The notes beneath the pieces were generated by a model. It made no database searches and was not told the DNA's origin. It saw only the letters and a list, made by a program, of their open reading frames with translations. From the IMG/VR virus record IMGVR_UViG_3300045125_000127: 64,000 nucleotides of DNA. One strand, written 5' to 3'. A program made the translations under genes and the position numbers. Source of the stretch: a virus. Of this stretch, positions 548 to 43,131 are shown piece after piece. Every line of letters begins with the position of its first letter. Positions within the stretch are counted from its first letter, which is position 1.

Positions 548-992
548 ATGCCGAAGCCAGATCACACGCTTTACGGTGACATCGGGCAGTATCTCGGCAT
601 GTACGAGAACATCAAGTTCTTGTCCGACTTCCCCGATGTCAGGTCTGCCACCGTGGACTTCTTCGAGGACGAAGAAGACATGACGCTGGATTACGCCGAG
701 TCGATGCGGGAGCGGGGGCTGAATGCTCTCCGTCAACTTGTTGCGAATCACGTCCCGGCCGACCGGGTCGGCGAGGCTTACGATTACGTTGTGGGGAAGT
801 ACGATGCAGACTGGCGGCGATTTGTCCTCGATAAAGAAGAGGGAATAGTTTCTGATTACGAGAGTTATCTCTGGCGGGGAACCGGGCCGAAGCCGTATTT
901 CATGGGCCTGATCTGAAGAATATCTGAAGCGTAAACCCAAGAAGTACCGCAGTATTGACGACCCCGGAAGCTACATAGAAGACGATGTATAA
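548..992 (+). CDS. hypothetical protein ending in KKYRSIDD tag (frameshift near 915)
   Basis: ORF MPKPDHTLYG...; after one frameshift continues EEYLKRKPKKYRSIDDPGSYIEDDV* (stop 990-992). Confidence 0.65.
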
Positions 993-1082
993 CTACTGCA
1001 ACAGTGCGAAGTGTCTTCCTTTTTGGACGGTCGCTGTTTCGGTCGGACTTCCCGCCATTTTGTTGATTTTTTTGGTTACTTT

Positions 1083-1089
1083 CTAAATA
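1083..1089 (+). promoter_or_regulatory. T4-like late promoter (CTAAATA)
   Basis: CTAAATA 5 nt before the ATG of the MKKFNEW gene; same or similar motif before other MxxFxEW genes (minus 45572-45578, minus 48495-48501, ATAGATA at 29630 and minus 14608). Confidence 0.6.
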
Positions 1090-1094
1090 ACCTC

Positions 1095-1424
1095 ATGAAG
1101 AAGTTCAACGAATGGGTGAAAATCCGTGAAGGTAGCCCCGATCAAACTCTGCGTGGTCCCGTTGAACCGGGCGACCCCAACGATCCGCACTACCAGTGGT
1201 TCCTCAAGATGAAGCAACAAGCCGCTTCATCGCCACTTCAGAAGCCAGTTTCCAAGCCAGTCGATAAACCGGCTTCGCCTATTACGCCGGAAATCGACGC
1301 CAATCCGACCCAAATGTTTAGTGCCGATGATATGATTCAAGCGTATCACTCCGAAACCGATCCCCAAGTCAAGCAGTACATTTTGAGAAAAATCAGACAA
1401 TCTCACCCTGATTTCCGGGGCTAA
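1095..1424 (+). CDS. putative internal head protein (capsid-targeting-like N-terminus)
   Basis: Starts MKKFNEWVKIRE, like T4 internal-protein CTS (MKTYQEFIAE type); late-promoter motif upstream. Confidence 0.55.
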   Translation: MKKFNEWVKIREGSPDQTLRGPVEPGDPNDPHYQWFLKMKQQAASSPLQKPVSKPVDKPASPITPEIDANPTQMFSADDMIQAYHSETDPQVKQYILRKIRQSHPDFRG

Positions 1425-1469
1425 GTTGCTGCTTTACAACCGCTAGAAAGCGTGGTAGAATCTGCTACC

Positions 1470-1958
1470 ATGCCGCAACAACTTTTCATTCCGTCGTTAG
1501 GATCGCTGATCGTCCTCACTGAACCGTGGACTTTCAGCCTGTTTTTCGAGAGCCGCAACAAGACCATGCTTCAGGCTTTGTGCCCGAACAAGCGGCCGGA
1601 AACTGACGAGTGGAAGGACAAGAAGAAGTGGCGTTGGCGTGATTGGGGCGAAGACGCCGAACATCATGAAGGCAGCGAACTTCTCCGGTATCTCGATCCG
1701 ATGGACGAGAAGGAGTTGTTGGACGCCGAATCCAGTTTTCGGGCAACCCGTCGCAACCGACAGCCTTATCTGGAAGTAACTCTTCCGGCCGGACAGCAGT
1801 TGGCTTTCGCTCGGATTTACATTCGACAGGGCGGCACTGCTTTTAACTCGGTTACTTTTCGCACAACCAAAAGTGGTCCCGACAAGCTGTTCCACTCGAA
1901 GCGGTTTTGGGTGAAACTTCAGGACGCCAACAAGATTGTTTGTAACATCCTTGGGTGA
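1470..1958 (+). CDS. hypothetical protein
   Basis: Clean 162-aa ORF. Confidence 0.6.
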   Translation: MPQQLFIPSLGSLIVLTEPWTFSLFFESRNKTMLQALCPNKRPETDEWKDKKKWRWRDWGEDAEHHEGSELLRYLDPMDEKELLDAESSFRATRRNRQPYLEVTLPAGQQLAFARIYIRQGGTAFNSVTFRTTKSGPDKLFHSKRFWVKLQDANKIVCNILG

Positions 1959-1961
1959 AAA

Positions 1962-40219: not shown

Positions 40220-41099
40220 ACGATCTGGCTCTGAAAAATCAACCCGGACCCACAGTTGGTTTATGACTACAACGACTGTCTCACTCGTGGCGTGTGCCTT
40301 CAGTGTAGCAAGAAACTGGAATGGCACTTGGATGTTGGCCCGAACGACGACAGGTTTTGTTACGCCGTGTGCTGTACCACACGGTACTCTATGATCCCAG
40401 ACAAAGTTCGTGTTATTGGCACATTCGCTTATCCACTTTCCCAAAAAGAAATGGACGAAGACGAAGCCGAACTGGTTGACGATGATTTCATCAAACAACT
40501 CCGGGAGTTATGATGTACTTGTACGCCACAAATGTATGGCAACAACCAATTGATGCCCGACGATGAGTCGGATGAAGCGTGGGCAGAGTGGGGAAAAATT
40601 GAGAAAGAATGGGAAGACGCCCTCGAAAAGTACGAGGCCCGGCTGAAAGAAATTGACGACAAACTGCCAGATTCCCGTGAAGAAGTTCATGGAGAAGTGC
40701 CATCTTCACGACGCAACTGTTCCCGACGAAAACTGGAATTTCAACATCGGTTTCACCGGACCTCGCACGCTACAATTGGTCATTCACCAGAAAGATTGGG
40801 GGCCGGAATATTTTGTATTTTGCGGTACAAGATCGCTCATCCGGGCCATGTGACTACATTGCTCGGAGGCATGTTTCCGGCGTCGAACAGAAAGTGCATA
40901 AGGGTCCGGGGTTCGGATCAGCAGTCAAAACTACTGGTTGTATGATGAGTGGGATCATGTTGGCGAGTGTCACGGCACGAACGTTTTCCGTCACTCGTTT
41001 TACATGACGAACGGCGTGGAATTCGACATCCATTTTACGGATTTCAGTTTCGTTTACATTCCTGTCGGAGAAGGCTTGGTCGAAGAATAAGGAAATGAT

Positions 41100-41276
41100 A
41101 TGGAAAACAAGTTTAAGCGGATAACCATACCTCTTGTAAGGCGGATATATCCTTCACTGATCGCCGAAAAAATCGTCTCGGTGCAACGAATGAAGCGGCC
41201 GGACGATGACACACGGAAGAAGATTGTTCGTCCCAAGAGGTATCGCAGTATTGATGATCCGTGGGAGAATGCCTAA
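41100..41276 (+). CDS. major-capsid (gp23-like) fragment minigene 1 with RYRSIDDPW tag
   Basis: In-frame 58 aa: MENKFKRITIPLVRRIYPSLIAEKIVSVQRMK...RPKRYRSIDDPWENA*. Confidence 0.8.
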   Translation: MENKFKRITIPLVRRIYPSLIAEKIVSVQRMKRPDDDTRKKIVRPKRYRSIDDPWENA

Positions 41277-41548
41277 TGGATACCTCCCAAAACCCGTGCA
41301 ACGAAATTCCTCTGAATCCGGGCGGGTTCAACAAGATTTCGATCCCCTTGAGCGCCGCATTTACCCGCAGTTGATCGCCAATAATATCGTATCGGTTCAG
41401 CCGCTACTCGGCCCGACCGGGTTGATTTACTATTTGCGTCATCGGTACTCCCAAACTAAAGGGCAAAGAGGTTCAAGACGAACCCCGCAAGAAAGTCATT
41501 AAGCCGAAGAAGTATCGCAGCATTGACGAGCCGTTCGAGGCTTCTTGA
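41276..41548 (+). CDS. major-capsid (gp23-like) fragment minigene 2 with KYRSIDEPF tag (frameshifted)
   Basis: FNKISIPL(V)RRIYPQLIANNIVSVQPLLGPTGLIYYLRHRYS...KPKKYRSIDEPFEAS*. Confidence 0.75.
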
Positions 41549-42406
41549 GAAGAAAGCAGTTTACAACACCCCGTCCTGCGAAGTAGGATGGGGTGTTGTG
41601 TTTGTGGAGGAAAAAATGAGAGAAGTGAAACAGGCAATCGTCTGGCGTGGCGATCTGAAGGAAATGCCTCTTGGCAAGAAACAGGGTCAGGCTGCGCTGG
41701 CTCTACCTGTTCCTGACAGAGAAGATGAAGCCTGACATCGTGCCGTGTGAAATCGGGCCGGATGATTATCGTGCGTACCCGGAAACGCAAACTGTTAACG
41801 TGGCTATCGACGCCGCAGAAGCGGCATGGATTGTGGGAAACTACAAAAGGCGGTCCTTCTGGCTCGCACGGAAGAGGATATTCAGACCCTTTTCAAGCCG
41901 CACGCAAAGCCGGTTTGCGTGCTTATATTGTCACGGACTTGGGGCACACCGTTTTCAACGGCGAGCCTACGGTAACGATGCATGGCGATTGGTCCCAATT
42001 ACGCCGACGAAATCGACAAGATCACCGGGGCAGAAGGTCCGCTCGGCAAATTGAGGCTCGTGTAACATGGGCGTTAGGCAAAACTTGGCAACTTAATTTT
42101 TTTGAGTCTTACGGCCCGACAAGTTGGTTGCATTGCCTGCAAACAAAGTAATTCCAGAACCAGAAGACAAGTGCGTTTTTCTGGTTAGCGATATGGTCCC
42201 TCGAGAAGGACCGTCGGCCAAACCGACGCACCCTTGTTGTTGGCCTCGTTGCCAGAAAGAGGTCGTTTCCTGACACGAGGCCAATGTCAGGGGTGCGGCG
42301 TTCCGAGGCCGCTTTTTGTTTGTTGAAAATGACTCGGCCACAACAACATGGATAGATGTTGGAGTGCGCAAGAAAAAGATAATGGCAGTCTGCAAGTTGA
42401 TTCCGA

Positions 42407-42622
42407 TTGCTCTTTGCCCTGACTGTCAAGATAAATACGGCCCTCGCAAAAACGGCGGCGGGGTTTGGCATTTCCCGCTTGGCACGATCCGCCCTACCCG
42501 AAAAAGGTACTTTTGACCGAAAGATGACATCGAAATCTTTGAAAAAATGCTGGCGGTTGGCCGGACTGGAGAAGACTCGAACAAAGATGCCAAACTTCCG
42601 CCGAAGCATAGACGACAACTGA
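42407..42622 (+). CDS. hypothetical protein ending FRRSIDDN*
   Basis: Tag variant at C-terminus; 5' end uncertain. Confidence 0.4.
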   Translation: MLFALTVKINTALAKTAAGFGISRLARSALPEKGTFDRKMTSKSLKKCWRLAGLEKTRTKMPNFRRSIDDN

Positions 42623-42670
42623 ATTTCGGTGTAAAATATTGAGGTGTAACTAGAATAGATAGGCGAAACA

Positions 42671-43131
42671 ATGGTTGTGGCACTTCTGATAACGACTTTG
42701 GCGGGCACCCTTATTGCTCTGGGTGTTCAGGTCAGTGTAAACAGACGACTCAGATCGAAAGTGGCAGATATGCACGCTTCCGGTGCCATCCAGTCGAGTT
42801 TGTTGTCAGAAGTGACTGCCAGAGTTCTTGAGTTGGAACGCAAGACCGAGCCGAACGCTTTGACCCTGAACAGGAAAAATTCAAGTCAAAGCTTGAGTCG
42901 CAGTGGAAAAAGGTTGTGGACGACCTTAAACGTGCGCATGACGAACAGTTGGCGACTTACAAAGCCAATTTTGACGCCAAAGTAAAGGCCGAGTACGAAA
43001 AGGCCGTAGAATCTATCGCCTTCCACACGGTAGAATACAAGAAGTCGATCACGAAGGAAGCGTAAAGAAACCAGTCGCAAAACTAAAGCGACTGAAAGCC
43101 AAAGAATACAGGCTCAATTGACGATGAGTAG
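42671..43131 (+). CDS. membrane-anchored coiled-coil protein ending (KY R)SIDDE* (frameshifted)
   Basis: N-terminal TM helix; end reads KPK-aataca-ggc-SIDDE*, consistent with KPKKYRSIDDE after compensating indels; ATAGATA upstream. Confidence 0.55.

Follow-up and report, generated by a model that had tools for sequence, protein, structure and literature searches.

A terminal peptide tag shared by small proteins of giant T4-like phages, many of them fragments of the phages' own larger proteins

What makes about eleven small proteins of a single phage end in the same few residues? The question is raised by a 64,000-nucleotide stretch of viral DNA, IMG/VR record IMGVR_UViG_3300045125_000127 (the window), in which an earlier note, made from the letters alone, had noticed a recurring C-terminal peptide, K-[YW]-R-S-I-D-[DE]. 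Here we follow this tag through the window and its relatives. It is carried by a clade of giant (0.35-0.9 Mb) T4-like environmental phages on dozens of small proteins, and the main new finding is that many of these carriers are conserved copies of pieces of the phage's own larger proteins.

A terminal peptide and its carriers

Six-frame translation recovers R[ST]ID at every position listed in the earlier note (948, 2460, 5694, 7625, 23925, 39121, 39329, 41244, 41516 and 42602), always on the plus strand. The copy ending at 43131, said there to need an indel correction, reads YRSIDDE-stop once one base is taken out of AGG-C-TCA ATT GAC GAT GAG TAG (43110-43131). RSID[DE] occurs nine times on the plus strand and never on the minus strand, against an expectation of 0.09 in mononucleotide shuffles and 0.08 in codon shuffles, which bears out the view that the motif stands above background; [YWF]RSID[DE] is found seven times against 0.01-0.02 expected from shuffles. 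A position-specific scoring matrix (PSSM) trained on the related genome G001, introduced below, gives eight strong matches in the window and none in its reversed sequence. A chance origin of the tag is excluded by these shuffle and reversed-sequence controls. The consensus is KK-[Y/W]-RSIDD(-PWE), and the conserved positions are an aromatic residue at -1, R at 0, I at +2, D/E at +3/+4 and W/F at +6.

The earlier note had read the variation in codons as selection on the peptide, and wider counts agree. Over 59-60 tag instances from five related sequences, arginine is written with all six codons (CGG 13, CGC 12, CGT 11, AGG 9, CGA 7, AGA 7), serine with codons of both families (AGC 23, TCC 9, TCG 9, AGT 9, TCA 3) and isoleucine with ATT, ATC and ATA, while the window tags have nothing in common at the nucleotide level beyond what the peptide dictates. 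Because the arginine, serine and isoleucine codons are mixed in this way, selection on the tag acts at the peptide level. A DNA or RNA signal, whether a repeat, a -35 box TTGAC within ATTGAC, a Shine-Dalgarno sequence in AGGAG/TGGGAG or a start-codon overlap, was rejected, every codon position being mixed; glutamate after tryptophan is GAA ten times and GAG nine times, so there is no Shine-Dalgarno bias.

GenBank phages searched by megablast include no near relative of the window, and a first protein-seeded locus search returned no relatives. A degenerate DNA pattern for K-Y-R-S-I-D-D found G001 (IMGVR_UViG_3300049215_000771; 532,729 bp), which forms part of a 673,178 bp ENA scaffold. Positions 0.5-64 kb of the window are syntenic with 19-84 kb of G001, at 40-80% protein identity. 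The DNA pattern for R-S-I-D-[DE] matches G001 43 times and its reversed control not at all; 38 open reading frames (ORFs) contain RSID[DE], and the PSSM yields 44 matches against none in the reversed sequence. For at least seven of the 11 tags in the window there is a tagged G001 counterpart, with protein identities of 40-60%, so that the tag is conserved in a related phage.

The C-terminal bias and the basic linker that the earlier note described are also properties of G001. There, the distance to the C-terminus is 0-13 residues for 34 of the 38 tags; the other four are 28, 92, 119 and 143 aa away, two of them near the N-terminus. The outcomes that the earlier note had named as refuting it, a frequency at background level, a lack of C-terminal bias or a lack of conservation in relatives, were all checked and none was observed. 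Two ends are favoured, RSIDD-x-stop and RSID[DA]-x-W-[ED]-x-x-stop; 16 tags have their stop at +6 and 15 have it at +10, besides a spread of 4-9 residues. The carriers are small (65-231 aa, median 107) and scattered over the genome. Their linkers, of about 20-40 aa, are rich in K, R and P; in the 20 residues preceding the tag the K/R fraction is 0.23 versus 0.12, proline is enriched and hydrophobic residues are depleted. The linker joins the tag to the rest of the carrier, here called the bait, and the order can be inverted to tag-linker-bait at the N-terminus (G001 18099 and 524328; P0018 and P0050 among the minigene relatives described below). The tag thus occurs at either end, a symmetry typical of a post-translational tether. 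Four carriers have an N-terminal transmembrane (TM) helix, and since positive residues follow this helix, their tags are expected in the cytoplasm.

Two known classes of terminal peptide can be set aside on these properties. No TM helix follows the tag and no Pfam or NCBIfam model covers it, which separates it from CTERM-type sorting signals, PEP-CTERM and LPXTG. Precursors of ribosomally synthesized and post-translationally modified peptides are not a match either: only one tagged gene (G001 18932) precedes a radical-SAM-like ORF, and the carriers have the sizes and the scatter given above. This radical-SAM-like ORF (CNLACGGCYAQC; locus L004 4041-4970, G001 19496-20425) lies directly behind G001 18932-19483, and the syntenic place in the window showed no counterpart.

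Fragments of phage proteins as baits

The most extensive set of fragments comes from the major capsid protein (MCP). The Pfam family PF07068 (Gp23) matches the 478-aa MCP of G001 and four short ORFs, and BLAST adds two more; all six fragments are tagged. They cover MCP residues 55-102, 218-310, 307-415, 316-368, 400-448 and 436-463, and together with the MCP they form the largest paralogue family in G001. The N-arm fragment at 58150 is identical to the MCP in 42 of 48 residues (88%), and only 18 of these 42 residues share their codon. Because the residues are kept while the codons have drifted, this fragment is old and under purifying selection, and the carriers are not pseudogenes in decay. 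The tagged fragment of residues 400-448 is found in G001, in the related genomes G002, G003 and G004, and in soil and groundwater contigs. In G002 it has shrunk to 18 residues of MCP, joined to the tag through a Pro/Gln-rich linker of 36 residues, and in G001, G002 and G003 its gene lies 4-11 kb from the head genes. The MCPs compared for co-evolution of fragment and MCP are identical within the fragment blocks.

Other core proteins are sampled in the same manner. One G001 carrier reproduces residues 44-166 of the S77 prohead protease, another is a piece of the PrkA C-terminal domain (CTD), and two are pieces of a gp32-type single-stranded DNA-binding protein (SSB). Full-length SSBs are untagged and end in an acidic DDDF-type tail (G002 and G004, ...ADPEFMAELDNLKTEKK and ...LADDDFMKELGEM); in the SSB-core paralogues (G001 36315, G002 99953) the tag stands in place of this acidic partner-binding tail. 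KYRSIDDE is also the end of a G002 protein with an L7/L12 CTD, recognized by Pfam and with further repeats seen by eye. The earlier note's statement that the carriers share nothing else therefore needs qualification: they are otherwise unrelated to each other, but a large share are pieces or domains of bigger phage proteins (MCP, prohead protease, SSB, PrkA, L7/L12).

Two neighbourhoods of such genes may be recorded here. The L7/L12-CTD protein lies directly upstream of TROVE/Ro60 (window 9341-11561, G001 31434-33943), and its G001 copy has a weak internal tag-like sequence, KQYRQIDR (PSSM 14.3). An N-terminally tagged MCP half-copy of 160 aa stands between a Macro-domain gene and a microbial PARG gene (L077 15594-17405, G001 ~523.6-525.4 kb); both neighbours reverse ADP-ribosylation.

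The combination extends well beyond these genomes. Tag and MCP fragments occur together in contigs binned to Acidobacteriaceae (933 kb), Gammaproteobacteria (671 kb) and Chloracidobacterium metagenome-assembled genomes, a binning that is not evidence of the host, as well as in a 346 kb contig and many short metagenome contigs. Host proteins with the tag were sought in a scan of genome contigs, which gave only mis-binned phage contigs or chance matches. A search of 1.84 billion representatives with the N-arm minigene yielded 874 relatives, mostly short. Among those fetched, looser versions of the tag (type 1) follow [YW]-R-x-[IVL]-x-[DE]-x-[WF] at either terminus, others end in a different, type-2 tail, ...K-V-[DN]-W-x-K-E-G-F-stop, and a third motif is RW[KR]VQDRW. 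The type-2 locus L124 has, inside 20 kb, three unrelated ORFs with the ending V[NC]WLKEGF-stop; an MCP N-arm fragment and a PrkA fragment are two of these. Bait fragments with a shared terminal tag are conserved as a system, and the tag itself is lineage-specific. The same contig has a second Gp23-family ORF of 347 aa (L124 2293-3336) adjoining a type-2-tagged small ORF, and also RuBisCO-large-like and GmrSD-like genes. The 595 kb 'uncultured phage' LR756511.1, whose MCP is 82% identical, contains neither RSID[DE] nor W..EGF-stop. Its MCP-like fragments are untagged, one of them fused to a Zn ribbon, and lie 1.6-3 kb from its clpX and clpP (L120, L121).

Tagged genes of the window and their setting

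The window comes from a huge phage and is riddled with indels; its syntenic counterpart G001 is clean. All its genes are on the plus strand, its ORFs are interrupted every few hundred bases and its methionyl-tRNA synthetase is spread over three frames. Public Illumina metagenomes from a biofilter and from wastewater contain a ~98.5%-identical strain, and a 39.7 kb Illumina contig compared with 20 kb of the window shows 294 substitutions and 334 gap positions. Measured against such contigs, positions 23300-43299 contain many indels of one base, with 27.1-29.9 kb especially divergent or gapped; across 38619-39865, which holds two tagged ORFs, the contigs match without gaps. Because the window is so rich in indels, the open frames around several tags are short. 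Those at 948, 23925 and 41516 span just 12-30 codons and reach the gene body only with frameshift correction, and as assembled the tags at 5694 and 7625 are followed by 21 and 24 codons. An assembly artefact as the source of the tag system was rejected, the system being intact in clean Illumina-based relatives. RNA-Seq gave no evidence of expression, as the sole runs with matching sequence are probably DNA.

Table 1. Tagged genes and clpX in the window, with counterparts in G001.
Feature	Coordinates	Strand	Details
Tagged gene 1	458..992	+	Body 458-916; tail SEEYLKRKPKKYRSIDDPGSYIEDDV-stop in other frame, tag 933-965; frameshift error near 913-930 assumed; orthologue G001 18932-19483 ends KKKKHRSIDDE-stop
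Small ORF, degenerate tag LLRTIDSPWDKSENPENG-stop (2460-2483)	2292..2510	+	Orthologue G001 9284-9676 ends PPRSIDSPPTPEDER-stop
Frameshifted SH3-like gene, tag variant KKISCRSIDEGWDD (5679-5720)	5490..5774	+	Adjoining frame KFKCGDIVEIIKTGV, like G001 25010-25429 (ends SSWRSIDDD-stop)
Short open frame with ILRKYRSIDD (7610-7639)	7535..7714	+	C-terminal of upstream gene or N-terminal of next (indels)
Gene ending QKRLYRSIDD-stop (tag 23910-23942)	23395..23942	+	Frameshift assumed; directly 5' of isoleucyl-tRNA synthetase (IleRS); syntenic with tagged SSB-core paralogue of G001
Intact 77-aa small beta-barrel (SH3/Tudor-like), end KSFKWRSIDDE-stop	38908..39141	+	61% identical to G001 55182-55418, tag identical
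gp32-type SSB N-terminal (Zn-finger) fragment, end KQKKWRSIDDE-stop	39131..39349	+	Stop overlaps next start
MCP N-arm ('Gol-region') minigene 1, 58 aa	41100..41276	+	ITIPLVRRIYPSLIAEKIVSVQ, linker, RPKRYRSIDDPWENA-stop
MCP N-arm minigene 2, one frameshift	41290..41548	+	RRIYPQLIANNIVSVQPLLGPTGLIYYLRHRYSQ, linker, KPKKYRSIDEPFEAS-stop; orthologue G001 58150-58437
71-aa ORF ending MPNFRRSIDDN-stop	42407..42622	+	Weaker tag, no aromatic before R
N-terminal TM + coiled-coil protein, end KAKEYRSIDDE-stop	42671..43131	+	Several frameshifts; extra C at ~43113 removed
clpX, 5' part	63621..64000	+	Candidate receptor; zf-C4_ClpX + AAA_2 in G001 orthologue 82884-84230

Several of these genes can be characterized further. 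A sigma70-like promoter, GCTTTACAACC-N-GTGGTAGGAT, starts at 23945, right behind RLYRSIDD-stop, and another follows G001 36992 in the same way; its position therefore supports a true C-terminus for RLYRSIDD-stop. AlphaFold models the 77-aa protein at 38908-39141 with five strands and the tag in an unstructured tail (predicted local distance difference test score 47), and a fold search returned merely weak Tudor/SH3-like matches. In the SSB fragment, IRLLPP...CPCPICD resembles the N-terminus of full SSBs, and N-arm minigene 1 is 74% identical to residues 58-88 of the G001 MCP. The TM and coiled-coil protein has orthologues at G001 60657-61202 (ending RSFRSIDDE-stop) and in JAANMV010000001.1. 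Directly downstream of the capsid minigenes lies a gene for the peptidyl-tRNA hydrolase PTH2 (41628-42062). A 190-aa release-factor-like protein with a PCRF end and an RF-1/GGQ domain, about the size of PrfH, is encoded 2.5 kb beyond it (44598-45161), and an HNH endonuclease gene (43588-44284) lies between the two.

In G001 the tagged genes sit among those for aminoacyl-tRNA synthetases, tRNAs, nucleotide metabolism and replication, often in tightly overlapping operons. A sigma70-like consensus, CTTTACAA(CC)-N~17-(G)GTAnnAT, stands in front of many operons, those of IleRS and of tRNA clusters among them, with sites at 1432, 23945, 34987, 54558 and 59818 (+) of the window and about 49 in G001. 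The G001 tags co-distribute with these promoters, and both are missing from the structural block; in its 260-340 kb (portal, protease, scaffold, MCP) there are no tags. The sigma70-type promoters near tagged genes are probably early. Two further families of intergenic motifs were seen in G001 at 99-262 kb (loci L014-L023; e.g. 215149, 216720 and 220384): GTTTCCGAACCT-(hairpin)-GGTCTTCC, with ~30 copies, and TTTAGAG.TTTGTACCCTA, with ~21 copies clustered at 213-233 kb. Both are candidates for phage-specific middle or late promoters or for regulatory hairpins; the T4 late promoter TATAAATA is absent.

A phage clpX, whose product has a zinc-finger N-domain, is found at the window's end and at G001 82884-84230. 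ClpP is encoded at G001 249745-250347, 2.3 kb upstream of three tagged genes, and 3 kb from a type-2 minigene in L122. PrkA-YeaH-SpoVR genes are present in relatives, and a search of 533 kb of G001 turned up no full-length PrkA. In G002 a string on the minus strand (17120-24063, L059-L060) comprises PrkA (721 aa), a YeaH-like 408-aa ORF, a 532-aa ORF and a ClpP-like gene. YeaH-type proteins carry a vWA/MIDAS domain, which would make them another conceivable receptor for an Asp-containing tag.

A proposed docking peptide and the alternatives

How could so many unlike proteins make use of one peptide? We think it fairly probable that the carriers dock through the tag to a common partner. The tag would be a portable docking peptide, an extended segment in a basic, disordered tail, linked flexibly to a bait module and placed at either terminus of a small protein. 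Some baits would be small folded domains, others conserved peptides or domains that derive from larger proteins; the copied ones would be the N-arm, spine-helix, A-domain and C-terminal strands of the MCP, the prohead protease, the SSB core, the PrkA C-domain and the L7/L12 CTD. A carrier may then act as a bivalent adaptor, its bait binding the partner of the parent segment and its tag tying it to one common receptor, which would have co-diverged with the tag across lineages. We infer the docking, the common receptor and the receptor's identity alike. Docking after translation is suggested by the bait-linker-tag layout, found also in reverse, by the disordered basic linker, by the replacement of the SSB tail, by the cytoplasmic exposure of the tag and by the swapping of tags. 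The receptor is most likely phage-encoded, because in a sister lineage the baits are retained while another tail is shared among them. An expanded paralogue family was considered as receptor and none was seen, the sole sizeable family in G001 being the MCP with its fragments. Among the functions proposed in the earlier note, docking to a common hub fits best, given the use of either terminus and of the SSB partner tail's place, whereas its ClpX clue is weak because a relative with ClpX and ClpP has neither tag type searched.

Phage ClpX/ClpP could nevertheless be the hub, with the carriers acting like SspB-type tethered adaptors or as tagged substrates. ClpXP is our best guess at the common partner because of the SspB-like layout, the presence of the genes and their loose linkage, and we regard it as a doubtful one. 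Like the tag carriers, SspB-type ClpX adaptors have a binding module that varies, a linker that is disordered and a short tether peptide at the terminus. The XB peptide of SspB is LRVVK-like, and the tag sequence is unlike it. SspB also differs in being one carrier per genome where here there are dozens, many of whose baits are phage protein fragments, and ClpX binding of the tag is putative. A bolder version, which we hold to be unlikely, is that mimic peptides of the phage's conserved proteins carry one lineage tag through which bound partners are handed to an effector such as ClpXP. A panel of mimics (capsid N-arm, capsid core strands, prohead protease, SSB, PrkA, L7/L12) would be made, probably early in infection, and the captured partners could be EF-Tu, or else immune sensors or chaperones of the host that detect conserved phage proteins. 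Such a system would amount to a natural counter-defence of the PROTAC-like or sponge type, its tag-receptor pairs being interchangeable.

Several points weigh against docking or against ClpXP as the receptor. A phage would harm itself with a tether that delivered its own MCP to a protease. ClpX (58% identical) and ClpP are both encoded by the tagless LR756511.1, so that having ClpXP does not predict having the tag; the G002 contig, 69% complete, yielded no ClpX; and to our knowledge the tag is unlike any known ClpX recognition class. At ~25-30 bits the motif holds more information than most docking motifs and would also suit an enzyme recognition site, and the conserved Ser/Thr at +1 hints at a modified hydroxyl. 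Moreover, the G001 gene calls are crude ORF calls, of which ENA calls confirm one cluster only.

Such an enzyme could be a kinase: were the Ser/Thr at +1 phosphorylated, for instance by a PrkA-type or other phage kinase, many small proteins might be switched together. The residue is Ser in 54 and Thr in 5 of 59 tags, with basic residues upstream and acidic ones downstream, and apart from the high information content this reading could draw on the PrkA-YeaH-SpoVR genes of relatives and on the PrkA fragment that is itself a carrier. In the wider family, however, +1 can also be D, A or P (WRDITDPW, YRAIDEPF, YRPIDAPW), which makes the hydroxyl dispensable; neither Ser nor Thr occurs in the type-2 tail KVNWLKEGF, and full-length PrkA is the very protein that the G001 search did not find. 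We judge a modification site to be quite improbable. Somewhat better placed, if still unlikely, is a degron that marks early small proteins, including potentially toxic structural fragments, for timed destruction by phage ClpXP or a host AAA+ protease. It would make sense of the phage-encoded ClpX and ClpP, the probably early promoters around tagged genes, the tagging of all MCP fragments in G001 and the cytoplasmic tails of the membrane-anchored carriers. Some N-arm minigene relatives even end in ...RKAA-stop, which recalls the Ala-Ala ends of the ssrA type. Yet ssrA-like ClpX degrons are unrelated in sequence and sit at the extreme C-terminus, where the carboxylate is read; the tag stands 0-13 residues inward and has N-terminal copies, and because of this variable distance and these copies a free carboxylate is not read. 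A degron also leaves unexplained the strong purifying selection on the fragments and why the SSB partner-binding tail was replaced and not simply lost, and the relative with ClpXP is tagless.

Loading into the head for injection, with the tag as a capsid or prohead targeting peptide, has precedents in encapsulin cargo-loading peptides and the T4 capsid targeting sequence: these too are short, terminal, mostly C-terminal peptides on flexible linkers, on diverse proteins and with an HK97-fold shell, here gp23-type. The MCP- and protease-derived carriers and the nearness of the 400-448 fragment gene to the head genes would suit it. The tag has no sequence similarity to those peptides, though; it is found on four membrane-anchored carriers, on SSB-core and L7/L12-CTD carriers with no obvious role inside a head, and mostly on genes outside the structural block, in non-structural regions with sigma70-like promoters and aminoacyl-tRNA synthetase, tRNA and replication genes. 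This makes targeting improbable to much the same degree as modification. Lower still we place arrest of the ribosome in cis, by which carriers would be co-translational sensors like SecM, MifM or TnaC. The resemblance to TnaC is real: K-[YW]-x-x-I-D is spaced like K11-W12-F13-N14-I15-D16 in the TnaC helix, of which W12, I15 and D16 build a ligand pocket in the exit tunnel (PMC8450073, PMC8429421). The tags lie few codons before the stop, in two discrete classes (+6, n=16; +10, n=15), the linkers of 22-40 aa are roughly of tunnel length, and PTH2 and the short GGQ protein are close by. But N-terminal tag-linker-bait versions exist, Tyr is preferred where TnaC requires Trp, no conserved element such as a Pro is found near the peptidyl-transferase centre, where the last residues vary, and the type-2 tail is unrelated in sequence. 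Several tagged genes end their operon (in G001 the gene ending at 36992 is followed by a promoter, those ending at 200847 and 201954 by convergent genes), which leaves nothing to regulate in cis. An analogy of the TM carriers to MifM/SecM was dropped, the downstream genes looking unlike insertase or Sec genes on reading, with no Pfam run. Equally far-fetched seems an association of tags with one another, the charge-palindromic KK-Y-R / S-I-DD forming an antiparallel zipper that clusters carriers into an assembly or condensate. It would account for many carriers with no separate abundant hub, and no paralogous receptor family was seen; its basis is the sequence pattern alone, pure inference, while the type-2 tail is not charge-palindromic and short peptides seldom self-associate specifically.

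Docking to a hub has parallels elsewhere. The gp45-binding tails of T4/RB69 gp43, gp33 and gp55, the SSB tip DDDIPF and PIP boxes likewise equip unrelated clients with one short terminal peptide behind a basic or flexible lead, and in the SSB paralogues the tag takes the exact place of the partner-binding tail. The tag differs in not being extreme-terminal and in occurring at the N-terminus as well, and the full-length SSBs keep their own acidic tail; the replication genes here are PolA-/DnaB-type, unlike those of T4, and no clamp link was found. For one bait the partner might be guessed from T4, whose Gol peptide is the trigger of the Lit protease. The window's two minigenes carry the most conserved N-proximal block of the gp23 family (profile positions 3-72), which probably corresponds to the Gol region. 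This 29-residue region in the N-proximal part of T4 gp23 binds EF-Tu domains II and III (PMC3014915). In contrast to T4, the N-arm here is a free-standing, tagged small gene in many phage lineages and not part of a capsid, and its EF-Tu binding is putative.

As the earlier note had supposed, the motif belongs to no named family: Pfam, NCBIfam and PHROG have no record of it, PDB sequences no match to the tail, and no mention of YRSIDD, WRSIDD or RSIDDPW was found in the literature, including the jumbo-phage comparative review PMC7824862. Terminal docking or sorting peptides as a kind of device are known already; new, as far as we found, are the scale, the attachment to mimic pieces of core phage proteins that selection has maintained, and the interchangeability of the tags. 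Should the tag be a docking handle, one of the largest peptide-hub networks known to us in bacterial viruses would be defined by it, with ~40-60 clients per genome, and a single peptide of 11 residues could be used to retrieve a hub central to the biology of huge phages. The different tails on the same baits offer a natural co-evolution experiment for the receptor and perhaps orthogonal tag-receptor tools. The tagged fragments are unexpected, and they suggest that mimics of their own core proteins serve giant phages as functional modules, perhaps in the role of decoys, adaptors or regulators of assembly.

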